From a virus (Duplodnaviria; Heunggongvirae; Uroviricota; Caudoviricetes), in the IMG/VR virus record IMGVR_UViG_3300025413_000008: 64,000 nucleotides of DNA; one strand, 5' to 3'. A model generated the notes under the pieces. The model made no database searches. It was given only the letters and a program-made list of their open reading frames with translations, and was not told the DNA's origin. Positions 11,256 through 61,497 of the stretch are shown one piece after another. Numbering within the stretch: position 1 is the stretch's first letter; each line of letters opens with the position of its first letter. The translations under genes and the position numbers were made by a program.

Positions 11256-12272
11256 ATGAAAAACCTATTCAAAAAAGCAGCAGTGTTCACTGATATACAT
11301 TTCGGACTAAAGAGTAACAGCCTACAGCACAATCAAGATTGCGCAGATTTCGTTGATTGGTTTATATCAAAGGCAAAAGAGGAGGGGTGTGAAACATGTT
11401 TGTTTCTTGGTGATTGGAATCATCATAGAGCAAGTATAAACATTCACACCCTTCAATTTGGGTTACGTGCTTTAGAAAAATTAAACAATGCATTTGAGCG
11501 TGTTTTATTCATTCCGGGAAACCATGATCTTTATTACCGTGATCGCAGAGACATTCACTCGGTAGAGTGGGCATCACATCTTCCCAATATCACAATCGTT
11601 AATGATTGGTTTTGTGAAGGGAATGTTGTCATTGCGCCATGGCTTGTTGGTGATGATTATAAGAAGTTACCAAAATTAAAAGGCAAATATATGTTTGGGC
11701 ACTTTGAACTGCCAAACTTCTACATGAACGCAATGGTTCAAATGCCTGATCATGGAGAACTTAACTTAGACCATATTCAGCAATTTGATAAAGTATTCTC
11801 CGGTCACTTTCATAAGAGACAGGCAAGAAGGAACGTATGGTACATTGGAAACGCGTTTCCCCATAACTATGCGGACGCTGGTGACGATGCCAGAGGAATG
11901 ATGGTACTTGAGTGGGGAGAAGAGCCTGAGTTTCATGCATGGCCACAACAGCCGCTATTCAGAGTATACAAACTCAGTGACGTTCTGGACAATCCTGATG
12001 GGTTACTTCTTCCTAAGACAAACGTTCGTGTCCATCTTGACATTGACATTTCATATGAAGAGGCGAACTTCATTAGAGAAACTCTGATACCAACACATAA
12101 TCTTCGTGAAATGTCGCTCATTCCAATAAAGAATAGCGAGCACATTCAAGATTTAGAAACAGGTGAACTTAAGTTTGAATCAGTTGATCAAATAATTGTT
12201 GACCAAATTACCGCCATAGAGAGCGATTTCTATGATTCTAAACTTCTGTTGGCTATTTATGAGTCAATATGA
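11256..12272 (+). CDS. 47: Recombination endonuclease subunit gp47 (Mre11/SbcD-like metallophosphatase)
   Basis: Calcineurin-like phosphoesterase motifs FTDIHFG, LGDWNHH and GNHD. Adjacent to a Rad50-like gene as in T4. Confidence 0.8.
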   Translation: MKNLFKKAAVFTDIHFGLKSNSLQHNQDCADFVDWFISKAKEEGCETCLFLGDWNHHRASINIHTLQFGLRALEKLNNAFERVLFIPGNHDLYYRDRRDIHSVEWASHLPNITIVNDWFCEGNVVIAPWLVGDDYKKLPKLKGKYMFGHFELPNFYMNAMVQMPDHGELNLDHIQQFDKVFSGHFHKRQARRNVWYIGNAFPHNYADAGDDARGMMVLEWGEEPEFHAWPQQPLFRVYKLSDVLDNPDGLLLPKTNVRVHLDIDISYEEANFIRETLIPTHNLREMSLIPIKNSEHIQDLETGELKFESVDQIIVDQITAIESDFYDSKLLLAIYESI

Positions 12273-12376
12273 TTCTTTAGTTTCCATCCGTATGCGCGAT
12301 TTCTCTTTCCTTTACCGATATAATATGGGGTAAGATCAGATTTACGCAGGTATGCATAAACGTAATAAATATTCAT
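12257..12376 (-). pseudogene. Truncated GIY-YIG homing-endonuclease relic (39 aa) in the gp47/gp46 intergenic region
   Basis: The minus ORF MNIYYVYAYLRKSDLTPYYIGKGKRNRAYGWKLKNHIDS has an AAGGAG RBS. It carries the GIY, YIG and conserved Arg elements but stops before the catalytic Glu/Asn region. It overlaps the gp47 3' end. Confidence 0.45.
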
Positions 12377-12496
12377 TGCTGATAGCTCCTTCTTAGCAAT
12401 TAGAGTGGGTGGGGATTGCAGTCCCGTGACTCACATTTATTTATATATTTAACAAAAACCATTGATTTATACCTAACAGGATGTTATAATACTATC

Positions 12497-14584
12497 ATGT
12501 CAATCATTCTCAAAAATATAACCCTTCGTAACTTCCTTTCAATTGGAGCAGTTACCCAAGCAGTAAATTTTGACAGCAAAGAATTAACTCTTATCATGGG
12601 TCAAAATTTAGACCTTGGAGGAGATGGTGCAAGAAATGGAACGGGCAAAACCACTCTGATACAAGGGCTGGCTTATGTTCTATTTGGTTCACCAATTAAT
12701 AGCATTCGTAAAGATAACCTTATCAACCGCACCAATGGTAAAGGTATGATGGCTACTCTTGAATTTAGTGCTAATGGGATTGACTATAAGATTGAACGAG
12801 GAAGAAAACCAAACATCCTTAGGTTCTTCGTGAATAATAGTTTACAAGAGCATAAAGACGATTCCGCTCAAGGTGAAAACAAGGAAACTCAGGCTGCAAT
12901 TGAGCGCGCTATCGGTATGTCATCCGATATGTTCAAGCATATTGTTGCTTTGAATACGTATTCAGAGCCATTCCTTGCCCTTGGTTCAGGACCACAAAGA
13001 GATATTATTGAACAGTTGCTTGGTATTACCTTGTTGTCCGAAAAGGCTAAAGCCATAAAGGATAAACTGAATGTCAATAAAGATAATATCCAGCAAGAAG
13101 AATTCAAGGTCAAGGCTATTGAAGAAGCAAACAAAAGAGTTCAGGAACAAATTGAAAGCCTAAAACGTAGACAGTCTTTGTGGATCAAGAAACATGAGGC
13201 AGATTTAAATAGTCTTGTAACAGACTATGATGAACTAAGCAAGATTGATATTGAGGCGGAATTACAATCTCATAAAGACTTCTCTGTATATCAAGAAAAA
13301 AAGAAAAAGCAAGATGCAATCAGTGCGCTCGTCGCTAGACAAGTAGCATGGAAGCAAAAGCAGTCCAAGGATATTGCTGCTCTTCAAAGCACATATGATG
13401 CTCTGAGTCATATTGATATTGATGCGGAATTACAAGCCCACAAGTCCGTTGCCGAATGGAAGCATAAAAAGGCTGATGCCGATAAGTTCAACTTGACAAA
13501 GGCGAATCTAGAAAAGAATATTATTCGCGAAACCGGAATCATCAAGAAACTTTCAGAAGAAATTGCAACTTTGGAAAGTAACAGGTGCTATGCATGTGGT
13601 CAAGATTTTCATGATGAAAATCATGTAACCGTTTTGGACGATAAAAAGGCATTGCTTGCTTCTGCACAGAACGATCTTACCCAAAACCAAAATGATTTAG
13701 AAAAAATAAAAAATGCATTAAATGATTTGAATTTGGGTAAACAGCCATCCACTCATTATAAGACTGAATCCGAGGCGATCAAACACAGTTCCGAACTTGA
13801 AAACATTCAAAATAAAATTGCTTCTAAAAACCATGAGACCGATCCCTATGCTGAGCAAATTACAGAAAATGATACCTTAGAAGCCCTCGGACCCGTTCCA
13901 AAGACTATATACGATACTGAAGCGCAGGCGATTGAACATAGATCAACCGTGCATAACCTGCTGCAACAGATTGAACGTAAGGTAGCAGAAGTTGATCCCT
14001 ATGCTGAGCAGGTTATTGAAATGGAATCTAAAGCATTACAAGAAATTGATTTTGAAAAGATCAACGAGTTGTCACGTTATGGTGATCACTTGAAGTTTCT
14101 CATGGACCTATTGACCAGTAAAGACTCATTTATTCGTAAGAAGATCATTGATCAAAACTTGTCCTATTTAAACGCAAGACTTACTCATTATCTGGATAAA
14201 ATGGGACTGCCCCATACTGTTATCTTCAAGAATGACTTGTCGGTTGAAATTACTGAACTCGGGCGTGAGTTGGATTTTGATAATTTATCACGCGGTGAGC
14301 GGAACCGACTGATTCTTGGTCTTTCGTTTGCATTTAGAGATGTGTGGGAAAACTTGTATCGTCCTATTAATACTTTGTTCATTGACGAATTGATTGACTC
14401 GGGCTTAGACTCTATAGGAGTTGAAAACGCAATGGCTGTTCTCAAAGAAATGTCTCGTAACCGCAACAAGTCAATCTGGCTCGTTTCACACAGAGAAGAA
14501 CTTGCAGGGCGTGTTCCAAGTGTTCTCAAGGTTGTCAAGGAGGCTGGGTTCACCTCATATTCCACATCAACCGATATAGAATAA
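12497..14584 (+). CDS. 46: Recombination ATPase gp46 (Rad50/SbcC-like)
   Basis: Walker A GARNGTGKTTLIQ. Long coiled-coil middle with a CxxC zinc hook (CYACGQ). C-terminal signature/Walker B-like LFIDELIDSGLD. Start moved to the Met after the track start; TTGATT-N17-TATAAT lies just upstream. Confidence 0.8.
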   Translation: MSIILKNITLRNFLSIGAVTQAVNFDSKELTLIMGQNLDLGGDGARNGTGKTTLIQGLAYVLFGSPINSIRKDNLINRTNGKGMMATLEFSANGIDYKIERGRKPNILRFFVNNSLQEHKDDSAQGENKETQAAIERAIGMSSDMFKHIVALNTYSEPFLALGSGPQRDIIEQLLGITLLSEKAKAIKDKLNVNKDNIQQEEFKVKAIEEANKRVQEQIESLKRRQSLWIKKHEADLNSLVTDYDELSKIDIEAELQSHKDFSVYQEKKKKQDAISALVARQVAWKQKQSKDIAALQSTYDALSHIDIDAELQAHKSVAEWKHKKADADKFNLTKANLEKNIIRETGIIKKLSEEIATLESNRCYACGQDFHDENHVTVLDDKKALLASAQNDLTQNQNDLEKIKNALNDLNLGKQPSTHYKTESEAIKHSSELENIQNKIASKNHETDPYAEQITENDTLEALGPVPKTIYDTEAQAIEHRSTVHNLLQQIERKVAEVDPYAEQVIEMESKALQEIDFEKINELSRYGDHLKFLMDLLTSKDSFIRKKIIDQNLSYLNARLTHYLDKMGLPHTVIFKNDLSVEITELGRELDFDNLSRGERNRLILGLSFAFRDVWENLYRPINTLFIDELIDSGLDSIGVENAMAVLKEMSRNRNKSIWLVSHREELAGRVPSVLKVVKEAGFTSYSTSTDIE

Positions 14585-28007: not shown

Positions 28008-28045
28008 ATAATTGACAAATGCTGCTGACTATGATAAATAAAAGT

Positions 28046-28846
28046 ATGAAACATTTTATTTACAAAACAACTCACAAAAACGGCAAATACTATATTGGCA
28101 GACATAGCACCGACAACATAGAAGATGGTTATGTTGGGTCAGGTAAATGGCCATTGTCCATTAAAGATAAATCATCACTGACTCGTGAAATATTGGAGTT
28201 TGTTGATGATTTTGACACGCTGGTTAAACGTGAAGGCGAATATCTCACAGAACATTATGGTAAACCCAATTGCATGAATAATAACATTGATCCCATTGGA
28301 TTTGATTCCGGTGATAATAATCCGATGCGAAATCCCGAGATAGCGGCAAAGATATCCGGAGATAATCACTGGCTAAAGCGAAATCCGGAAAGAAAAGAAG
28401 ATTTTAGGAACCAACAGCTTAATAGGGTTAAAGACGGGAGTCACAATTTTTTGGGAAACGATAATCCAAACAAAGATGGAAGAAACGCCAAATTGGCATA
28501 TGAACGTGGAACACACAATACCTTGACTAACAACCCATCAACCGTAAATGCTACTAATGGGACACACCATTGGCAAGATGGTAAAAGTCCAAACTACCAA
28601 GGAAAACTTAATAAAAGGTTAGTTGAAGAAGGTCGTCATAATTTCCTTGGTCCGGAGTTGAATCAGAAACGGATTGATGAAGGAAATCATAATCTTGTTG
28701 GATCAGACACGAATCTTAAAATGTTAGCCGAAGGTAAACATCCATCACAACAAAAGAAAACCTGTGAACATTGTGGAAAAACTGCGAGTGTTGGGATGTA
28801 TAAACGTTGGCACGGTGATAACTGTAAGAACAATAAGGACAAGTGA
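28046..28846 (+). mobile_element. GIY-YIG (Seg-like) homing endonuclease with NUMOD3-like repeats and a C-terminal CxxC..WHxDNC zinc motif
   Basis: MKHFIYKTTHKNGKYYIGRHS contains GIY and YIG. Repeated GDNNPMRNPE/GNDNPNKDGRN modules. C-terminal CEHCGK...WHGDNCK. TTGACA-N17-TAAATA lies upstream. Inserted immediately after gp23. Confidence 0.7.
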
Positions 28847-41920: not shown

Positions 41921-42367
41921 ATGATTAACGTATTCTTATCGGATTTTTATACCCGGCTGCGATCTTGGCACGCTCTTAAAGAAAAATTAACAGAAGCGGA
42001 CTTACAAACTATATGCGTTGAGGTTGACAACTTCTGGCAAAGATGCCCCATAACACCTCACTATCTTCACCCGGCAGACATTGAAGATTGGCCAAATCCA
42101 TGGGAATTGCTCAAAGACAATGACTACTGTCACTATGGCAGAGCACTCGGAATGATCTACACATTATTGCATTTGGGTATCAAAAACATTGACTTAGTGG
42201 ACGCAATAGACTATTGTGATGAACATGCTGTATTAGTCTTAGTTGACGACGCAAAATATGCGCTTAACTACTACCCCAACTCAGTGTTAAATATAGACCT
42301 AACTGAATTTAAAATCACAAGATTTATTGACATAAAACCATTAACAAAGAAAACAGGTAAAGAATGA
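41921..42367 (+). CDS. Hypothetical protein (148 aa)
   Basis: ORF that overlaps the nrdA start. Confidence 0.35.
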   Translation: MINVFLSDFYTRLRSWHALKEKLTEADLQTICVEVDNFWQRCPITPHYLHPADIEDWPNPWELLKDNDYCHYGRALGMIYTLLHLGIKNIDLVDAIDYCDEHAVLVLVDDAKYALNYYPNSVLNIDLTEFKITRFIDIKPLTKKTGKE

Positions 42368-44685
42368 TTAACGTAACCAAACGATCAGGAAAAGTCGTAC
42401 CACTGGACTTAGAAAAGTGGCAAGCACAGATTACAAAAATTTGTGCAGGAATAGCAGATGTAAGCCAGTCAATGGTAGAAATTAAAGCACAACCAAACTT
42501 TTTTGATGGCATTACTACTAGAGAAATTGACCAAATCACACTAAGAGCAGTAGTTGATTTGATTGACGCAGAGTCTAATCCTGACGTAGGTCACACTAAT
42601 TATCAGTATGTTGCCGGGAAACAGAGATTGTCTATGCTTCGCAAGGATGTTTATGGACAATTTGATCCTCCTCACCTATATGATATTGTAAAGAAAAACA
42701 TATCTGTTGGACTTTATACGCCTGAACTCCTAGAATGGTATTCTGAGGATGAATGGAACAAAATGAATGATATTATTGATCATTCAAAAGACGAACAGTA
42801 TTCATATGCGGCAGTTGAGCAACTTATTGAAAAATATCTTGTTCGCAATAGAGCCACTAAAGAAATTTATGAAACGCCTCAAGTCAGATATATTATTGCA
42901 GCAGCAACGGTCTTTCATAAAGAAGAGCCAAACACTGCAAGAATGCGCTATGTAAAAGATTACTATAATGCTGCTTCTGATGGTTTATTCACTTTGGCTA
43001 CTCCTGTTCTTGCTGGTCTTGGTACTCCCACAAAGCAATTCAGCAGTTGTGTTCTTATTCGTAGCGATGACGATCTGGACTCAATTTTTGCTTCAGGACA
43101 AATGATGGCCAAGTATGCCGGTAAACGTGCTGGCATTGGACTAGAAATTGGAAGACTTCGCTCGCTTGGATCACCTATTCGTGGCGGCGAAATTATGCAT
43201 ACTGGCATGATTCCCTTTCTTAAGAAATGGTTTGGCGATTTACGATCTTGCTCACAGGGTGGCATTCGTAATGCTTCATGCACAGTTTGGTTTCCTATTT
43301 GGCATCATCAATTTGACGATCTTATAGTGCTTAAGAATAATCAGGGAACAGAAGAGACCCGAGTCCGCCACATGGATTACGGAGTGGTTCTATCAGGTTT
43401 CTTCTGGCGAAGATTTAAGAACAAAGAGAACATCACCTTCTTTGATCCTAACGAAGTTCCTGACCTTTATGAGGCGTTCTATTCAAACACTGCTAAATTT
43501 GAAGAACTCTACGTAAAGTATGAAAAGCGTAAGGATTTACGCAAGAAGGTAATGAGTGCCGAAGAAGTCTTCAAGAGCGGCCTTCTCAAGGAGCGTACAG
43601 ATACTGGTCGCATATATTTAATGAATATAGATAATGTGATGAATCAAGGTCCATTTGATCCTGAATATCACAGTATCTATCAGAGCAATCTCTGTGCAGA
43701 AATAACCTTACCATCACGCCCATTTAAGAATCTTGAAGATGAAAATGGCAGAATTTCCCTTTGCACTCTTGGTAGTATAAATTGGGGAGCATTTAGAAAT
43801 CCAGAAGATATGCGTAGAGCATGTCGTCTTTTGCTGCGTAGTCTGAATAACATTCTTGACTATCAAGACTTTCTATCTATCCAGTCAAAACTTTCCAATG
43901 ATGAAATTCGGCCTATTGGCATCGGGATCACCAACCTTGCATACTGGCATGCCAAGCGCGGATTGAAATATGGAGAAAAGGATGCGTTACAGGAAGTCAA
44001 GTCTTGGATTGAACATCAAACATATTATTTGATGGAAGCTAATGTTGAACTTGCCAAAGAACGCGGTAAATGTATTGACTCTGATAAAACTCGTTATGGT
44101 CAGGGAATTTTTCCATGGGAACTTCGCGCAAAGGGTGTAAATGAATTAGCCGATTTCACACCTGAACTTGATTGGGAAACCCTACGTGAAAACATGAAGC
44201 AATACGGCGTTCGCAATACTACTGTTGGAGCAATCGCACCAGTTGAATCATCATCGGTTGTTATTAATTCAACCAATGGCATCGCAATGCCAATGAGTTT
44301 AATATCCATCAAGGAATCAAAGGCAGGATCGTTTGTTCAGGTAGTTCCCGATTATCATATACCCAAGGTTCGTAAGAACTATCAATTGATGTGGGAACAG
44401 ACGGACTGTGTTGGATATCTAAAGACAGCAGCGGTACTGGCTGCATACATAGATCAGTCCATATCTACTGATACTTTTTATTCTCCTAAGCATTTTCCTG
44501 ATCGTAGGGTTCCTACTACGCTTATTGCAAAAAATTTAATGCTATTCGCCAAATGGGGTGGAAAAACAAATTATTATAGTCTTATTGATAAGCGGGGGTC
44601 CAAAGAAGAAGCCGATGACGCACCTGGCATGTTAGAACCTATTGACTTTGATGATGACGGGGATTGCGAGAGTTGTAAGTTGTAG
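42364..44685 (+). CDS. nrdA: Ribonucleotide reductase class Ia large subunit NrdA
   Basis: N-terminal ATP-cone-like region. Active-site NLCAEI. C-terminal Cys pair DGDCESCKL. Confidence 0.85.
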   Translation: MINVTKRSGKVVPLDLEKWQAQITKICAGIADVSQSMVEIKAQPNFFDGITTREIDQITLRAVVDLIDAESNPDVGHTNYQYVAGKQRLSMLRKDVYGQFDPPHLYDIVKKNISVGLYTPELLEWYSEDEWNKMNDIIDHSKDEQYSYAAVEQLIEKYLVRNRATKEIYETPQVRYIIAAATVFHKEEPNTARMRYVKDYYNAASDGLFTLATPVLAGLGTPTKQFSSCVLIRSDDDLDSIFASGQMMAKYAGKRAGIGLEIGRLRSLGSPIRGGEIMHTGMIPFLKKWFGDLRSCSQGGIRNASCTVWFPIWHHQFDDLIVLKNNQGTEETRVRHMDYGVVLSGFFWRRFKNKENITFFDPNEVPDLYEAFYSNTAKFEELYVKYEKRKDLRKKVMSAEEVFKSGLLKERTDTGRIYLMNIDNVMNQGPFDPEYHSIYQSNLCAEITLPSRPFKNLEDENGRISLCTLGSINWGAFRNPEDMRRACRLLLRSLNNILDYQDFLSIQSKLSNDEIRPIGIGITNLAYWHAKRGLKYGEKDALQEVKSWIEHQTYYLMEANVELAKERGKCIDSDKTRYGQGIFPWELRAKGVNELADFTPELDWETLRENMKQYGVRNTTVGAIAPVESSSVVINSTNGIAMPMSLISIKESKAGSFVQVVPDYHIPKVRKNYQLMWEQTDCVGYLKTAAVLAAYIDQSISTDTFYSPKHFPDRRVPTTLIAKNLMLFAKWGGKTNYYSLIDKRGSKEEADDAPGMLEPIDFDDDGDCESCKL

Positions 44686-44693
44686 AGGCTAGA

Positions 44694-45383
44694 ATGGTGA
44701 TAAATACAGTTGCCGATCACGATACTGATAATATCTACCGGCTCTATAACACTGAGGAGTTACAGCAAATGTATTTAGATAATATTCCTGCCTATGTCTA
44801 TTATATTAGACATATACCTACTGGCAAGTTTTACTATGGTTCCAGATATAATCATATAAAGAAAGGCACATTGCCTGAAGATGATCTTTGGACATCATAT
44901 TTCTCATCTTCTAAAGAAGTGAAAAAGTTGATACAAGAAACAGGGAGCAGTTCGTTTGAAACTGTGATATTGTTTAAGGACTCAAATCCCGAACTTTGTT
45001 TTGAGTTTGAACAAAATATCATTAAAGAATATATAGCAGACACACTATGTATCAACAAACGATACTTCAATACCGCTAGTGGCAAATCATCATATTGTGT
45101 ATTCGGAAAAACTTTGTCATCAAAAGGAAAACCGAAAACAGAAGAAACTAAACAGAATATGAGAAAACCAAAATCAGTGTCTCATAAAGAAAACATTAGA
45201 AAAGCACAACTCGCAAACGGGGGCAATGGACCAAAGAACCACAGCGAAGAGTCAAAGTTGAAAAATGGAGACACGCACAGGCTTTTGATACGAGAAAAAG
45301 TAACTTGTCCGCATTGTAACAAAACGGGCGGCGCAATCGCAATGCCAAGATGGCATTTTGATAACTGTAAGGAAAAGAAGTAA
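44694..45383 (+). mobile_element. GIY-YIG homing endonuclease inserted between nrdA and nrdB
   Basis: AYVYYIRHIPTGKFYYGSRYN contains GIY and YIG. C-terminal CPHCNKTGGAIAMPRWHFDNCK. This is the position where T4 carries mobE. Confidence 0.65.
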
Positions 45384-45386
45384 ATC

Positions 45387-46520
45387 ATGTCTAAAGATCA
45401 ATACAATATCAGTAACGTTCCTAACTATCTAAAACGAAAGATGTTCTTGGATGGTGTAGTGACTGTTCAGCGATTTGAAGAATATCGTCAGCCCAAGCTT
45501 GCTAAGTTTGAAGAAATGCAGCGTGGATTTTTTTGGGTTCCCGAAGAAGTTAATTTATCTAAGGATGCCGGAGATTTTAAAGATTCCAGCGATACTGTAC
45601 GTCATATCTTTACTGCTAACTTATTGAGACAAACTGCATTAGATAGTATTCAAGGCCGCGCCCCGGTACAAATATTCTCTCCTGTTTGTTCTATTCCAGA
45701 ACTGGAATCATTGGTTTTAATATGGTCATCATTCGAAACAAATATTCACAGTCGCTCGTATTCACACATTATTCGCAATATCTACAATGTGCCGAAAGAA
45801 GTATTCAACACTATCCATGACACTCAGGAAATCATTGATATGGCTGCTAGTGTAGGTAAGTATTATGACGATTTACATGTGCTGAATTGCCGCAAGGAAC
45901 TGGTAGACAACTTTACAGGAGGCAATAAAGCTTGGGCAGATGCTATGGCCGTTCCTGAACAAGAGCACATTAATGCTATTTGGTTGGCACTTCATGCCTC
46001 CTATGCACTTGAAGCATTCCGCTTCATGGTATCATTTGCGACATCACTGGCAATGGTTGAGAATAAGATTTTCATGGGCAATGGTAACATCATCAGCTTG
46101 ATCCTACAGGATGAACTTCTACATAAAGAATGGACTGCTTGGATGATCAATCAGGTTGTCAAGGAAGACCCGCGATTCGTAACTGCTAAGACTACGTGCG
46201 AACAGGAAGTGCGAAAGATTTACGAAGATGTTATTCGTGAAGAAAAAGAATGGGCAAAATATCTTTTCAAAAAGGGTCCAGTTATCGGACTTAATGAACG
46301 CATCATGGTAGATTTTGTTGATTATAATGCAGTAGATGCTCTTAAACAGATCGGTATGAAATACTGGAATCCGGCACCAAAATCTACACCTATTCCATGG
46401 TTTAACAAGCACATGGACACATCTAAAAAGCAAACTGCCTTGCAAGAGTCAGAAAGCACATCATATGTTATTGGTATTATGTCTGACGTTCTTGACTACG
46501 ACGAACTTCCTGATCTTTGA
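45387..46520 (+). CDS. nrdB: Ribonucleotide reductase small subunit NrdB
   Basis: Ferritin-like di-iron protein directly following nrdA and the endonuclease. Carries E..H and HKEW-type motifs. Confidence 0.7.
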   Translation: MSKDQYNISNVPNYLKRKMFLDGVVTVQRFEEYRQPKLAKFEEMQRGFFWVPEEVNLSKDAGDFKDSSDTVRHIFTANLLRQTALDSIQGRAPVQIFSPVCSIPELESLVLIWSSFETNIHSRSYSHIIRNIYNVPKEVFNTIHDTQEIIDMAASVGKYYDDLHVLNCRKELVDNFTGGNKAWADAMAVPEQEHINAIWLALHASYALEAFRFMVSFATSLAMVENKIFMGNGNIISLILQDELLHKEWTAWMINQVVKEDPRFVTAKTTCEQEVRKIYEDVIREEKEWAKYLFKKGPVIGLNERIMVDFVDYNAVDALKQIGMKYWNPAPKSTPIPWFNKHMDTSKKQTALQESESTSYVIGIMSDVLDYDELPDL

Positions 46521-46567
46521 TTGACATCATACAAAAAATATGGTATGATGTGAATTAAGGAGAATTT

Positions 46568-47359
46568 ATGAAGAATGGTAACAGCGTAATCCTCAATACA
46601 ATTATTGAGGATTTGCGAGACGCGGATGGTGTTGTGATTCTTGCAGGAGCAGGCATGGGCGTAGATTCTGGTATTCCAGATTTTAGGGGAAACTCTGGAA
46701 TCTGGACAGCAGAGAAAGATGCATTCATCAAATATGCAACTGCTGACAGTTTTCATAATGCCCCATTAGACTCTTGGAACTTTTACATAAACAGATTTCT
46801 TATGTATAGTGAACTCTCACCTCATCGTGGGTATTATGAATTATTAAAATTGCCAAAAGATATTTTTGTCATAACTAGTAATGTGGATGGGCATTTTATC
46901 AAAGCAGGATATGATCGTGACAGACTATATGAAATTCATGGAAACTTAGAATATGTTCAATGTAGCCATGGATGTTGTGCAGATATTAAGCCTATGCCAA
47001 AATTTACACAAAAACTAACCCACATAGATGAAATACCAACGTGTCCACGCTGTCTTGCGGTATACCGACCATTAGTAATGATGTTCAATGATCCATGGTT
47101 TATTCCCTATAAGGTCAATGAGCAGGAACGCAATTATCTGAACTGGGAAAAGGATAAGAAAAAAATTATCGGGATTGAAATCGGTGCAGGTTTGGCAGTT
47201 CCAAGCATAAGAATGATGGGTGAAGAAAGAACAGACAGATTAATTCGTATCAACCCACATGATTATGCCATTAATCGTGCTTCTGATGTGTCAGTGCCAA
47301 CCGGAGCATTGAATGGAATTGATGTGGTTATGAAATTATTTAACGGAGAAATAGAATGA
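46568..47359 (+). CDS. Sir2-family NAD-dependent protein deacylase (sirtuin)
   Basis: GAGMGVDSGIPDFRG (canonical sirtuin NAD-binding motif). Catalytic HG. Zn-ribbon cysteines CSHGCC...CPRC. Confidence 0.7.
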   Translation: MKNGNSVILNTIIEDLRDADGVVILAGAGMGVDSGIPDFRGNSGIWTAEKDAFIKYATADSFHNAPLDSWNFYINRFLMYSELSPHRGYYELLKLPKDIFVITSNVDGHFIKAGYDRDRLYEIHGNLEYVQCSHGCCADIKPMPKFTQKLTHIDEIPTCPRCLAVYRPLVMMFNDPWFIPYKVNEQERNYLNWEKDKKKIIGIEIGAGLAVPSIRMMGEERTDRLIRINPHDYAINRASDVSVPTGALNGIDVVMKLFNGEIE

Positions 47360-47586
47360 AAGCAGTAGTATGGTCACGTGATAATTGCACTTATTGCACA
47401 CAGGCAAAGGTGCTTTTGACACAAAAGGGTATTGAATTTGAAGAACGTAAGATCGGTGAGGGATATACAAAAGAAGACCTTCTGGAAGCCGTTCCTGCCG
47501 CTCAAGCAATTCCGCAGATATTCATTGACGGTGAGTATGTGGGCGGCTTCAAAGAATTACGCAATAAGTTAACAGAAGTATTATAA
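47356..47586 (+). CDS. Glutaredoxin (NrdC-like)
   Basis: CTYC active site in a 76-aa thioredoxin-fold protein, in the nrd neighbourhood. Confidence 0.7.
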   Translation: MKAVVWSRDNCTYCTQAKVLLTQKGIEFEERKIGEGYTKEDLLEAVPAAQAIPQIFIDGEYVGGFKELRNKLTEVL

Positions 47587-47596
47587 AGGAAAAATA

Positions 47597-47908
47597 ATGA
47601 AGCATTTATCAGATTTAATTGGTCACGTGGTAACACTCAAGCTTGCGTCAGGAGAAGAATTGGTTACTAAAATTCTTGATATTCAGAATGGTGAAGTATT
47701 AATTCACGATCCACTAAGCGTGGCACCGGGTGCACAGGGTATTGGGCTTGTGCCAAGTTTATTTACAGCAGACCCCAAGGCCGATACAAAGCTCAATCTT
47801 AATAGCGTTGTGATTTATGCTCTTACTGATGAATCAGTAAAGAATAAATATATTCAGGCTACAACAGGATTGGTAATTCCCGATACTAAAAAGTTGATCC
47901 TCGGATAA
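47597..47908 (+). CDS. Hypothetical protein (103 aa)
   Basis: ORF with an RBS. Confidence 0.35.
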   Translation: MKHLSDLIGHVVTLKLASGEELVTKILDIQNGEVLIHDPLSVAPGAQGIGLVPSLFTADPKADTKLNLNSVVIYALTDESVKNKYIQATTGLVIPDTKKLILG

Positions 47909-58094: not shown

Positions 58095-58724
58095 ATGTTC
58101 AAACCTACCATTTTTTATATTAAACGTCATAGCCTAACCGGTTTAAAGTATTTCGGAAAAACTACCAATCTAATGGTAACAAATGGTCGTTACAGGGGTG
58201 GAGGGAAATATTGGAAAACCCATATCAAAAAACACGGTGTCAGATATGTTGAAACAATATGGAAATCGGAAGTTTTCACTGATAAAGATGAATGTGTGAT
58301 TTTCGGTTTGATATTTAGTAATCTGTTTACAATCGTAGAGTCATACGAGTGGGCGAACCTAGAACCCGAAAATGGCATAAACGGGTTTGTTCCAGGAAGC
58401 CCATCGGCGTTAAAAGGTCGCAAGTTGACCGAGGAACATAAAGAAAAAATTTCAAATTCTACTAAAGGCCGGTCTGCACCGAATAAAGGCTCCCCATCAC
58501 CACTGAAAGGTAGAGAGTCTCCATTAAAAGGACGAACTGGTAGAGCAATAAAAGGTAAACCTTCTCCAAAAAAAGGATTGCCTAATCCAGGAGCATCCGC
58601 AGCAAATAAAAATGTTCCTAAAAAGAAAGTCATTTGTCCGCATTGTAATAAAGAGGGCGGCGTAAATACAATGTATCGTTATCATTTTGATAACTGCAAA
58701 TTAATTGAAAAAGGAGTTAATTGA
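58095..58724 (+). mobile_element. GIY-YIG homing endonuclease (third intact copy)
   Basis: IFYIKRHSLTGLKYFGKTTN. Repeated SPLKGR NUMOD-like modules. C-terminal CPHCNKEGGVNTMYRYHFDNCK. Confidence 0.6.
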
Positions 58725-60756: not shown

Positions 60757-61497
60757 ATGAACAATATACCGTATACATATCTAATAGGATGGTCAACACA
60801 TAATCTCTGGTATTATGGAGTTAGATATGCAAAAGATTGTCACCCATCTGATCTTTGGGTTAAGTATAAAACCTCTAGTAAATATGTTGACAATACTGTA
60901 TCTCTATATGGAGAGCCTGATGTTGTGCAGATAAGACGGACATTCACATCTGAAAAAAAGGCTAGGATTTGGGAAGAAAAGGTCCTTCGTCGTATGAACG
61001 TGGTTACGATGGATCAATGGATAAATAAAACCTCAAATAGGGCATTTACTCCAATGTATGGAGACGCTAATCCCATGAGTAGACCGGAAATCATTGAAAA
61101 ACATAAACAGGTTGTTAACAGCGAACAATGGATAACACACAGACGCATTTCCGCAGCAGACCCGATTGTCAGAGCAAAAATATCCGGAGAAAACCATTAT
61201 TCCAAAAAGGATGGATATGAATGCAAGACAAAAGGAGATAACAGCCCCATGAAACGTCCAGAGGTTGCAAAAAAGGCAAAGGACAACCTTCCATCAAGGG
61301 TTGGGGAATTGAATGCACGATCAATATTAACAGAAAGTATGGTGCGTGATATAAGAAAAGAGTTAAAGGATGGACTTCCTGAAAATCCCAAATATGGACA
61401 AGCAGAACCGGTGTATGCAGCCATTGCCATGAAATATGGAGTCGGTGCCGGAACTATAAAATCCATTAGATTTAACCGAATCTGGAAACATATTTGA
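60757..61497 (+). mobile_element. GIY-YIG homing endonuclease (fourth intact copy) with NUMOD3 repeats
   Basis: YTYLIGWSTHNLWYYGVRY. GDANPMSRPEI and GDNSPMKRPEV modules. C-terminal HTH-like tail. Confidence 0.6.

Follow-up and report, generated by a model that had tools for sequence, protein, structure and literature searches.

Introduction

Selfish endonuclease genes beside ribonucleotide reductase genes are well documented in T-even phages, where mobE and hef are both described from the slot between nrdA and nrdB and both are reported to cut nrdB (PMC2988022). T4 MobE nicks T2 nrdB at nucleotides (nt) 122-126 (PMC2790892), and is described as depending on read-through transcription from nrdA, with which it forms a tight junction (PMC2988022). 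Hef of phage U5, which replaces mobE and cuts nrdB, is assigned in PMC2988022 (which cites Sandegren et al. 2005) to an endonuclease family of its own and not to GIY-YIG; compared by that description only, it is a precedent for a different endonuclease in the same slot targeting nrdB. Here we analyze a 64,000-nt stretch of viral DNA (IMG/VR record IMGVR_UViG_3300025413_000008), hereafter the window, in which the nrdA-nrdB slot holds a free-standing Seg-like GIY-YIG homing endonuclease gene of 229 amino acids (aa), running from ATG to TAA at 44694..45383 on the plus strand. Alone, this gene is one more Seg-like selfish endonuclease beside a ribonucleotide reductase gene. What a comparison with about 100 related loci adds, without changing that category, is a likely target in the first third of nrdB, the exchange in place of nuclease domains on one DNA-binding module, and an apparent junction fossil.

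The closest described systems resemble this gene in different respects. The T4 Seg endonucleases (SegA-G, SegE/SegD type; PF19835, PHROG 314) are likewise free-standing between conserved phage genes and have an N-terminal GIY-YIG domain and a C-terminal DNA-binding region, and segD-annotated genes of vibriophages nt-1 and KVP40 align over 85% of the window protein, zinc-finger tail included. However, the identity of the window protein to any isolate-phage protein is only 24-37%, no T4 seg gene lies in the nrdA-nrdB slot (mobE is there), and the host here is an uncultured jumbo phage. The behavior expected of a Seg-type enzyme, as outlined in PMC2790892 and PMC2988022, is ‘intronless homing’ with co-conversion of flanking markers. 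T4 MobE shares with the window gene the slot itself, a homologous C-terminal half with a CCHC finger, a tight junction with nrdA and read-through from it, which is probable in our case, and it acts next to the nrdB position proposed below. Its nuclease is of the HNH type, whereas that of the window is GIY-YIG, and MobE nicks one strand, whereas GIY-YIG enzymes are described as normally making double-strand breaks (PMC2790892). I-TevI, the best structural match to the window's nuclease domain, shares the tethered two-domain ‘beads on a string’ architecture, its non-catalytic part including a zinc finger (PMC2988022); unlike the window gene it is intron-encoded (T4 td gene), and its zinc finger is described as sitting in the linker as a distance ruler. 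Finally, Barth et al. (2023; PMC10448857) report DNA-binding regions that are homologous but joined to unrelated nuclease domains, and place nuclease genes at the edges of the segments exchanged, their examples being T5orf172 enzymes of vibriophages; here, in contrast, three nuclease domains from two superfamilies occur in one slot, with a linked target-gene allele.

Results and discussion

The original prediction, made from the letters of the window, had called this gene a GIY-YIG endonuclease and pointed to a AYVYYIRHIPTGKFYYG motif and a CPHC...WHFDNCK tail, both of which are present in the open reading frame (ORF). Profile searches agree with that assignment. Pfam PF19835 (SegE_GIY-YIG) matches residues 18-127 at 36.2 bits (cutoff 25; E=8e-9) over profile positions 3-121 of 123, and PHROG 314, ‘homing endonuclease’, matches residues 34-228 (E=4.6e-25). 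There are 199 homologues at E<=1e-5, most of which carry a precomputed SegE_GIY-YIG domain, and the closest, a full-length copy, is 94% identical. An AlphaFold2 model has a mean predicted local distance difference test (pLDDT) score of 81, rising to 91-97 over residues 31-130, and its top three Foldseek matches in the PDB are all the I-TevI catalytic domain (1mk0, 1ln0; probability 1.00, target template-modeling (TM) score 0.61-0.62, E=2e-3 to 1e-2). The protein is thus modeled with the GIY-YIG fold whose lack would have told against the original call. Pfam, alignment, model and Foldseek together place the nuclease domain at about residues 31-135 (44784..45098, plus strand). Searches of PDB sequences with the single sequence (phmmer) and with the family profile returned nothing meaningful, so that I-TevI was recovered by fold comparison only.

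In an alignment of 53 homologues, Y36, Y47, G49, R51 and E106 are invariant and N121 is kept in at least 90%. The spacing between the two tyrosines is 11 residues and that between Glu and Asn is 15, the same values as in I-TevI, whereas the arginine sits closer to the second tyrosine than it does there. No HNH match was found in Pfam or PHROG for residues 1-135, and the window protein holds no HNH motif. The remainder of the protein, residues 140-229 (45111..45383, plus strand), is a DNA-binding module composed of a basic, NUMOD3-like helical linker and a CCHC zinc finger; some homologues carry Pfam NUMOD3 (PF07460). Of the zinc ligands, C205 and C208 are invariant in the same alignment, H221 and C225 are kept in at least 90%, and the finger is modeled at pLDDT 88-93. 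Collectively, the conserved residues fit an intact nuclease site together with a CCHC zinc finger.

The original prediction had also described the enzyme as unrelated to T4 mobE, a gene that we find in the nrdA-nrdB gap of the T4-type phage RB59, in keeping with its account of T4. Lack of relationship holds for the nuclease domain and fails for the C-terminal half. In a BLASTP comparison with the T4-type MobE of RB59, the C-terminal halves alone align (window residues 140-226, 34% over 98 aa, E=9e-12), and the RB59 finger, CPHCGKKVNKGNALRWHYDKCK, lines up with the window tail as CPHC...RWH[FY]D.CK. Similarly, a match to PHROG 655 is confined to window residues 122-228.

To what kind of phage does the gene belong? 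Portal, baseplate hub, tape-measure-like and SbcC-like genes mark the window as phage DNA. A Megablast search of 50,697 phage records with the nrdA-to-nrdB region gave no match. Among isolates, the best NrdA is that of Xanthomonas phage X1, at only 58% identity, and those of Ralstonia RSP15 and the Stenotrophomonas Menderavirus group come next; for the portal, PA5oct-like jumbo phages are nearest (52% identity). By sequence, then, the phage belongs to an uncultured jumbo-phage clade and not to the T-even phages (Tevenvirinae), and the T4-like setting assumed in the original prediction does not apply in the narrow sense. Because the phage sits outside the T-even group, a comparison with T4 concerns equivalent positions in a gene pair, nrdA-nrdB, that is widely conserved, and does not amount to synteny within one phage family. 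In IMG/VR we found about 100 relatives (loci numbered with L below), with NrdA 68-92% identical and contigs of up to 364 kb.

Across these relatives the slot is highly variable. The junction is empty in 32 of the roughly 100 loci (genes overlapping or separated by <=23 nt), with nrdA and nrdB overlapping in 16 empty alleles; the others hold inserts of 150-2738 nt. Among isolates, nrdA adjoins nrdB with no gene between them in X1 and Moby, and RSP15 has an unclassified 57-aa ORF (ORF060) in a gap of ~320 nt. When the inserted ORFs were clustered and then profile-searched, the window's endonuclease family appeared in 12 full copies among the relatives (L084-L091, L165-L168), 58-75% identical and, in every locus inspected, between nrdA and nrdB. 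The endonuclease gene is therefore polymorphic for presence and absence at one site among related genomes. Other relatives hold Mob-like HNH endonucleases in the slot (PHROG 655, E=1e-57), which tblastn matches to T4-type mobE, and still others hold a second GIY-YIG family. These occupants directly support the earlier proposal that the slot is a recurrent landing pad for different endonuclease families, an idea already published for T-even phages. Taken together, the loci display every stage of the homing-endonuclease life cycle: empty, intact, 5'-truncated and pseudogene.

Cargo of other kinds also occurs in the slot. Profile searches identified a class II aldolase, iron-sulfur proteins of the IscA/ErpA and IscU/NifU types, an Fe/Mn superoxide dismutase, a methyltransferase and a 5'-3' deoxyribonucleotidase, and isocitrate lyase, serine hydroxymethyltransferase and aminotransferase genes were assigned from sequence reading alone (L011, L020, L025, L034, L040, L042, L054, L056, L057, L067, L083, L108 and others). 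Several of these genes are related to iron or oxidative stress, and they lie beside the gene for a di-iron enzyme.

The endonucleases of the slot share more than a position. In the window's clade the last ~90 residues are 61-78% identical among proteins whose N-terminal domains differ: a Mob-type HNH domain in P0079, P0089, P0090 and P0096, a canonical GIY-YIG domain in P0103, and the SegE-type GIY-YIG domain in the window protein. At every recovered locus, the HNH-plus-module and canonical GIY-YIG-plus-module genes lie 0-9 nt upstream of nrdB. The exchange is clearest in L171, a close relative that shares the Sir2, glutaredoxin and PAAR neighborhood of the window. Nucleotide homology between the two ends in the 3' end of nrdA, resumes at 45123 and runs on through nrdB at 81%. 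As the homology resumes inside the endonuclease, at residue 143, the difference between the two loci reads as a cassette exchange of the nuclease domain alone. The relatives thus supply GIY-YIG and HNH enzymes matched on one DNA-binding scaffold, a natural panel that is relevant to the modularity and engineering of endonucleases.

If module-bearing genes move together with part of a target gene, then the module should be associated with particular alleles of that part. We compared 72 distinct nrdB alleles, 12 of them module-linked and 60 others; L082, in which the match extends over no more than the 29-aa finger of an intact HNH gene, was left out of the linked set. All 12 module-linked alleles are set apart from 56 of the 60 others by each of NrdB residues 45 (Q versus A), 94 and 112 (Fisher 1e-10). 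The strongest associations all fall in NrdB residues 7-115, with none as strong elsewhere in NrdB, and one weaker associated site was seen in nrdA, at residue 700 (4e-8). At the nucleotide level, association is confined to nrdB nt 1-360, with a collapse after ~360, and the final 600 nt of nrdA show none. The Q45 codon of the window lies at 45519-45521 (plus strand), and A is found at this position in 56 of the 60 alleles without the module. Overall, the Q45-type 5' segment is carried by all 14 distinct module-linked alleles and by 4 of the 60 others; the loci fetched afterwards, with HNH or canonical GIY-YIG forms, are all Q45-type and served as an out-of-sample check.

Segment trees gave the same boundary. 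Neighbor-joining (NJ) trees recover an exact 16-taxon bipartition, made up of the linked alleles plus L029, L039, L078 and L083, for nrdB nt 1-345 only, and the module-linked phages are scattered in trees of nt 346-1131. Under Fitch parsimony, the module trait takes 1 step on the nt 1-345 tree and 10-12 steps on the others, compared to ~16 with shuffled labels. Co-conversion is supported through an indirect comparative proxy, in that nt 1-345 form one module-linked clade and the rest of nrdB does not. The signal emerged only when association and segment trees were examined across the population of alleles; comparisons of the window with single relatives by identity in sliding windows (65-77% identity) gave no clear sign of co-conversion. 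We regard nrdB nt 1-345 (45387..45731, plus strand), which co-segregate with the DNA-binding module across divergent phages, as the putative co-conversion tract. The pattern is the one expected if module-bearing genes move with the first third of nrdB. It implies a break inside nrdB and not in nrdA.

A single relative, L092, appears to preserve the trace of such a break. In this locus an A45-type nrdB runs to ...GCAAGAGGATT and ends at window-equivalent nt ~143, where a 7-nt microhomology, GAGGATT, joins it to the last ~21 nt of a donor-type nrdA, whose end (GATTGTTTGGCCTGTAAACTATG) is as in L101 and L102. Past the junction lie a decayed HNH-plus-module endonuclease pseudogene and then a complete Q45-type nrdB. 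The arrangement looks like the fossil of a failed or illegitimate homing event. When the FFW motifs are aligned, the MobE nick site corresponds to window-equivalent nrdB nt 128-132, which is 11-15 nt from the L092 junction and just before codon 45. Given the linkage, the L092 junction and the position of the MobE nick, the target of the window enzyme probably lies at nrdB nt ~120-160, or at any rate within the first ~350 nt. This neighborhood (45506..45546, plus strand; codons E42 to E54, ...EEMQRGFFWVPEE) is placed by the L092 junction and the MobE precedent and is not a mapped site.

Alternatively, the enzyme could target the nrdA/nrdB junction of empty alleles, at which the stop codon of nrdA abuts or overlaps the start codon of nrdB; the linked nrdB segment would then simply hitch-hike. 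Intron-encoded endonucleases usually cut at or near their insertion site, and the nrdA-nrdB overlap in the 16 empty alleles does give a defined junction. We nevertheless consider this rather unlikely. Linkage is found on one side only, strongly over nrdB nt 1-345 and not at all in the final 600 nt of nrdA; empty alleles show little conservation of the junction sequence; the L092 junction is situated 143 nt into nrdB; and MobE, from the same slot, acts inside nrdB.

We therefore favor a model in which the ORF is a free-standing, two-domain Seg-class GIY-YIG homing endonuclease gene that targets the first third of nrdB, and we judge this model to be likely, if well short of certain. The enzyme would consist of an N-terminal SegE-type GIY-YIG nuclease domain tethered to a NUMOD3-like linker and a CCHC finger. 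On co-infection with a relative that lacks the gene, it would bind the rival's nrdB and cut it in the first third, most plausibly near the codons for ...A-R-G-F-F-W-x-P-E-E at nrdB nt ~130-150. Repair of the break from the endonuclease-carrying genome would then copy the gene and the first ~345 nt of nrdB into the rival, and the carrier genome would itself be protected by its linked Q45-type allele. As a sharply bounded segment of the target gene travels with the module, the model makes a testable prediction of the recognition region.

Several observations weigh against this model. R51 lies only 4 residues past the second tyrosine, compared to ~10 for the arginine of I-TevI, so the geometry of the active site is not strictly canonical, and activity as an endonuclease is deduced from conservation alone. 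In many phages, Seg and Mob genes located elsewhere also contain the module, at 38-47% identity. We have for this reason downgraded a MobE-specific kinship of the C-terminal module: the likeness to MobE is at the level of the family and by itself implies no common target. Ordinary recombination of a tight block, with crossover favored where the invariant ETNIHSRSY is encoded, could account for the 345-nt linkage in place of endonuclease-induced breaks; the NJ segment trees, built on 345-790 nt, are noisy; and the L092 junction comes from one metagenomic contig. Lastly, four alleles (L029, L039, L078 and L083) have the Q45-type segment and no module. The lineages concerned are L029, L039, L078/L079 and L083, and in two of them the slot is nearly empty (18 and 73 nt). 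The gene may have been lost from these lineages while the linked allele stayed behind, or they may be the source lineage.

A bolder extension of the model of nrdB targeting is that one ~90-aa module is dedicated to the site in the first third of nrdB and that three or more unrelated nuclease domains (SegE-type GIY-YIG, canonical GIY-YIG and Mob-type HNH) have been joined to it in place by recombination, MobE being a distant member of the same targeting lineage. We put this forward as a tentative possibility, and hold it to be doubtful. If it were true, specificity for the codons just upstream of FFWxPEE would have persisted across T-even and uncultured jumbo phages despite an interchangeable catalytic domain, and the linked A45-to-Q45 nrdB allele would be an immunity variant.

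The original prediction had instead proposed the NLCAEI-coding region of nrdA (codons 442-447; 43687..43704, plus strand), which is uninterrupted in the window, as the recognition target. The site is highly conserved, and it is a real insertion hotspot for other endonuclease genes in relatives. In L082, L108, L166-168 and L171, nrdA is interrupted immediately after NLC[AC]EI, and homology between the window and L171 or L082 breaks at 43682 and resumes at 43746 and 43762, respectively. In L082, L166-168 and L171 a GIY-YIG gene of 254-258 aa divides nrdA into two ORFs, both with new terminal extensions (L082:1998-5301; L171:649-3986; L166:1176-4999; window equivalent 43683-43745); the insert of L108, of 420 nt, is uncharacterized. 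Despite this, we consider it very improbable that the window enzyme recognizes NLCAEI. Those insert ORFs that we read belong to other GIY-YIG genes, and a tblastn query with the nuclease domain of the window protein gave no hit in the nrdA inserts. In L166-168 a GIY-YIG gene inside nrdA coexists with an orthologue of the window gene between nrdA and nrdB, so these are distinct elements with distinct sites. NLCAEI lies ~1 kb upstream of the window gene, farther than the known precedent for distant-site cleavage, that of SegG, at about 330 bp. No site in nrdA residues 454-773 is as strongly associated with the module as the best of nrdB. Our nrdA scans covered these residues and the last 600 nt, and NLCAEI is just outside them; the case against it therefore rests on the nrdB side, where the first ~345 nt are linked and the L092 junction is found.

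Two side observations concern the split nrdA genes. Their organization resembles the reported ‘genes in pieces’ reductase of Aeromonas phage Aeh1 (PMC3045599), and the insertion in L166 also includes an extra 173-aa ORF. At a different position, ~residue 296, nrdA of L083 is fractured by a 540-aa endonuclease gene (L083:2292-6667; PHROG 3339, E=3e-123). The ends of that fracture are intein-like (...LRSC|CVTPDTWVEV and ...VLTHN|SQGG), an arrangement said to be the ‘fractured gene with split intein’ of Dassa et al. 2009.

How is the endonuclease gene embedded between the nrd genes? Upstream is nrdA, encoding the 773-aa large subunit of a class Ia ribonucleotide reductase (42364..44685, plus strand; Pfam ATP-cone, Ribonuc_red_lgN and Ribonuc_red_lgC, E=4e-103; PHROG 84), and downstream is nrdB, encoding the 377-aa small subunit (45387..46520, plus strand; Pfam Ribonuc_red_sm, E=3.5e-40; PHROG 86). 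Both are intact, complete ORFs, separated from the endonuclease ORF by 8 nt after the nrdA stop and 3 nt before the nrdB start. An Rfam scan of 42000-47700 (E<=1) matched no known RNA family, group I introns included, and the endonuclease gene is free-standing, not inside an intron or intein. The upstream spacer (44685..44693, plus strand) contains a Shine-Dalgarno-like GAGG (44685-44688) 5 nt before the endonuclease ATG. An alternative start at Met26 is also preceded by GAGGAG, and some orthologues start there. A promoter and terminator scan of the plus strand between nrdA and nrdB found nothing convincing, and RNA folding of the spacer (z-score -0.19) supported no notable or start-codon-sequestering hairpin. 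With no separate promoter, terminator or notable hairpin in the spacer, the gene is probably read through from nrdA transcripts.

At its other end, the gene overlaps a signal of its neighbor: its last codons (AAGGAAAAGAAGTAA), which form the 3' end of the C-terminal module, carry the AAGGAAAAGAAG ribosome-binding region of nrdB. Truncated 3' pieces of 60-86 codons occur in L092, L099-L106 and L108/109, always directly upstream of nrdB. A first reading of these pieces as remnants of the GIY-YIG gene was rejected for L092 and for the 78-aa ORFs, which derive from HNH-plus-module genes; the 78-aa ORFs of L099-L106 and the L092 pseudogene are deletion or decay products of that form. The role of the last codons in nrdB ribosome binding may explain why exactly the 3' end is retained in decayed copies.

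Survival of this end alone suggests selection on it, and one could suppose that the window gene, too, no longer homes, and is either a decaying or domesticated remnant kept for the nrdB translation signals or a DNA-binding regulator of nrd expression; I-TevI is described as doubling as a repressor (PMC2988022). This seems unlikely to us for the window copy, which is full length and has every family-invariant residue of both domains intact, has a 94% identical full-length copy elsewhere, and has a nuclease domain modeled with high confidence.

Elsewhere in the window, the phage is rich in homing-endonuclease genes. Further endonuclease-like ORFs, with matches to PHROG 314 and 655, lie at 28019-28846, 58095-58724 and 60757-61497, all on the plus strand. 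The first two end in a related CCHC finger, with 50-67% identity over 27-30 aa to the tail of the slot gene. A 39-aa ORF on the minus strand (12257-12376) retains the N-terminal portion of a canonical GIY-YIG domain (73% identity to P0103 over 26 aa) and is probably a decayed endonuclease gene; it lies between an Mre11/SbcD-like gene (11256-12272; a sequence-only assignment) and the SbcC-like gene (12416-14584; PHROG 77). Downstream of nrdB, the order continues with a Sir2-family gene (46568-47359, plus strand; Pfam SIR2, E=2e-17; PHROG 2162) and then a glutaredoxin gene. Among the relatives examined, the Sir2 gene was found only in L004 and L171, so that this second slot, between nrdB and the glutaredoxin gene, is also variable.

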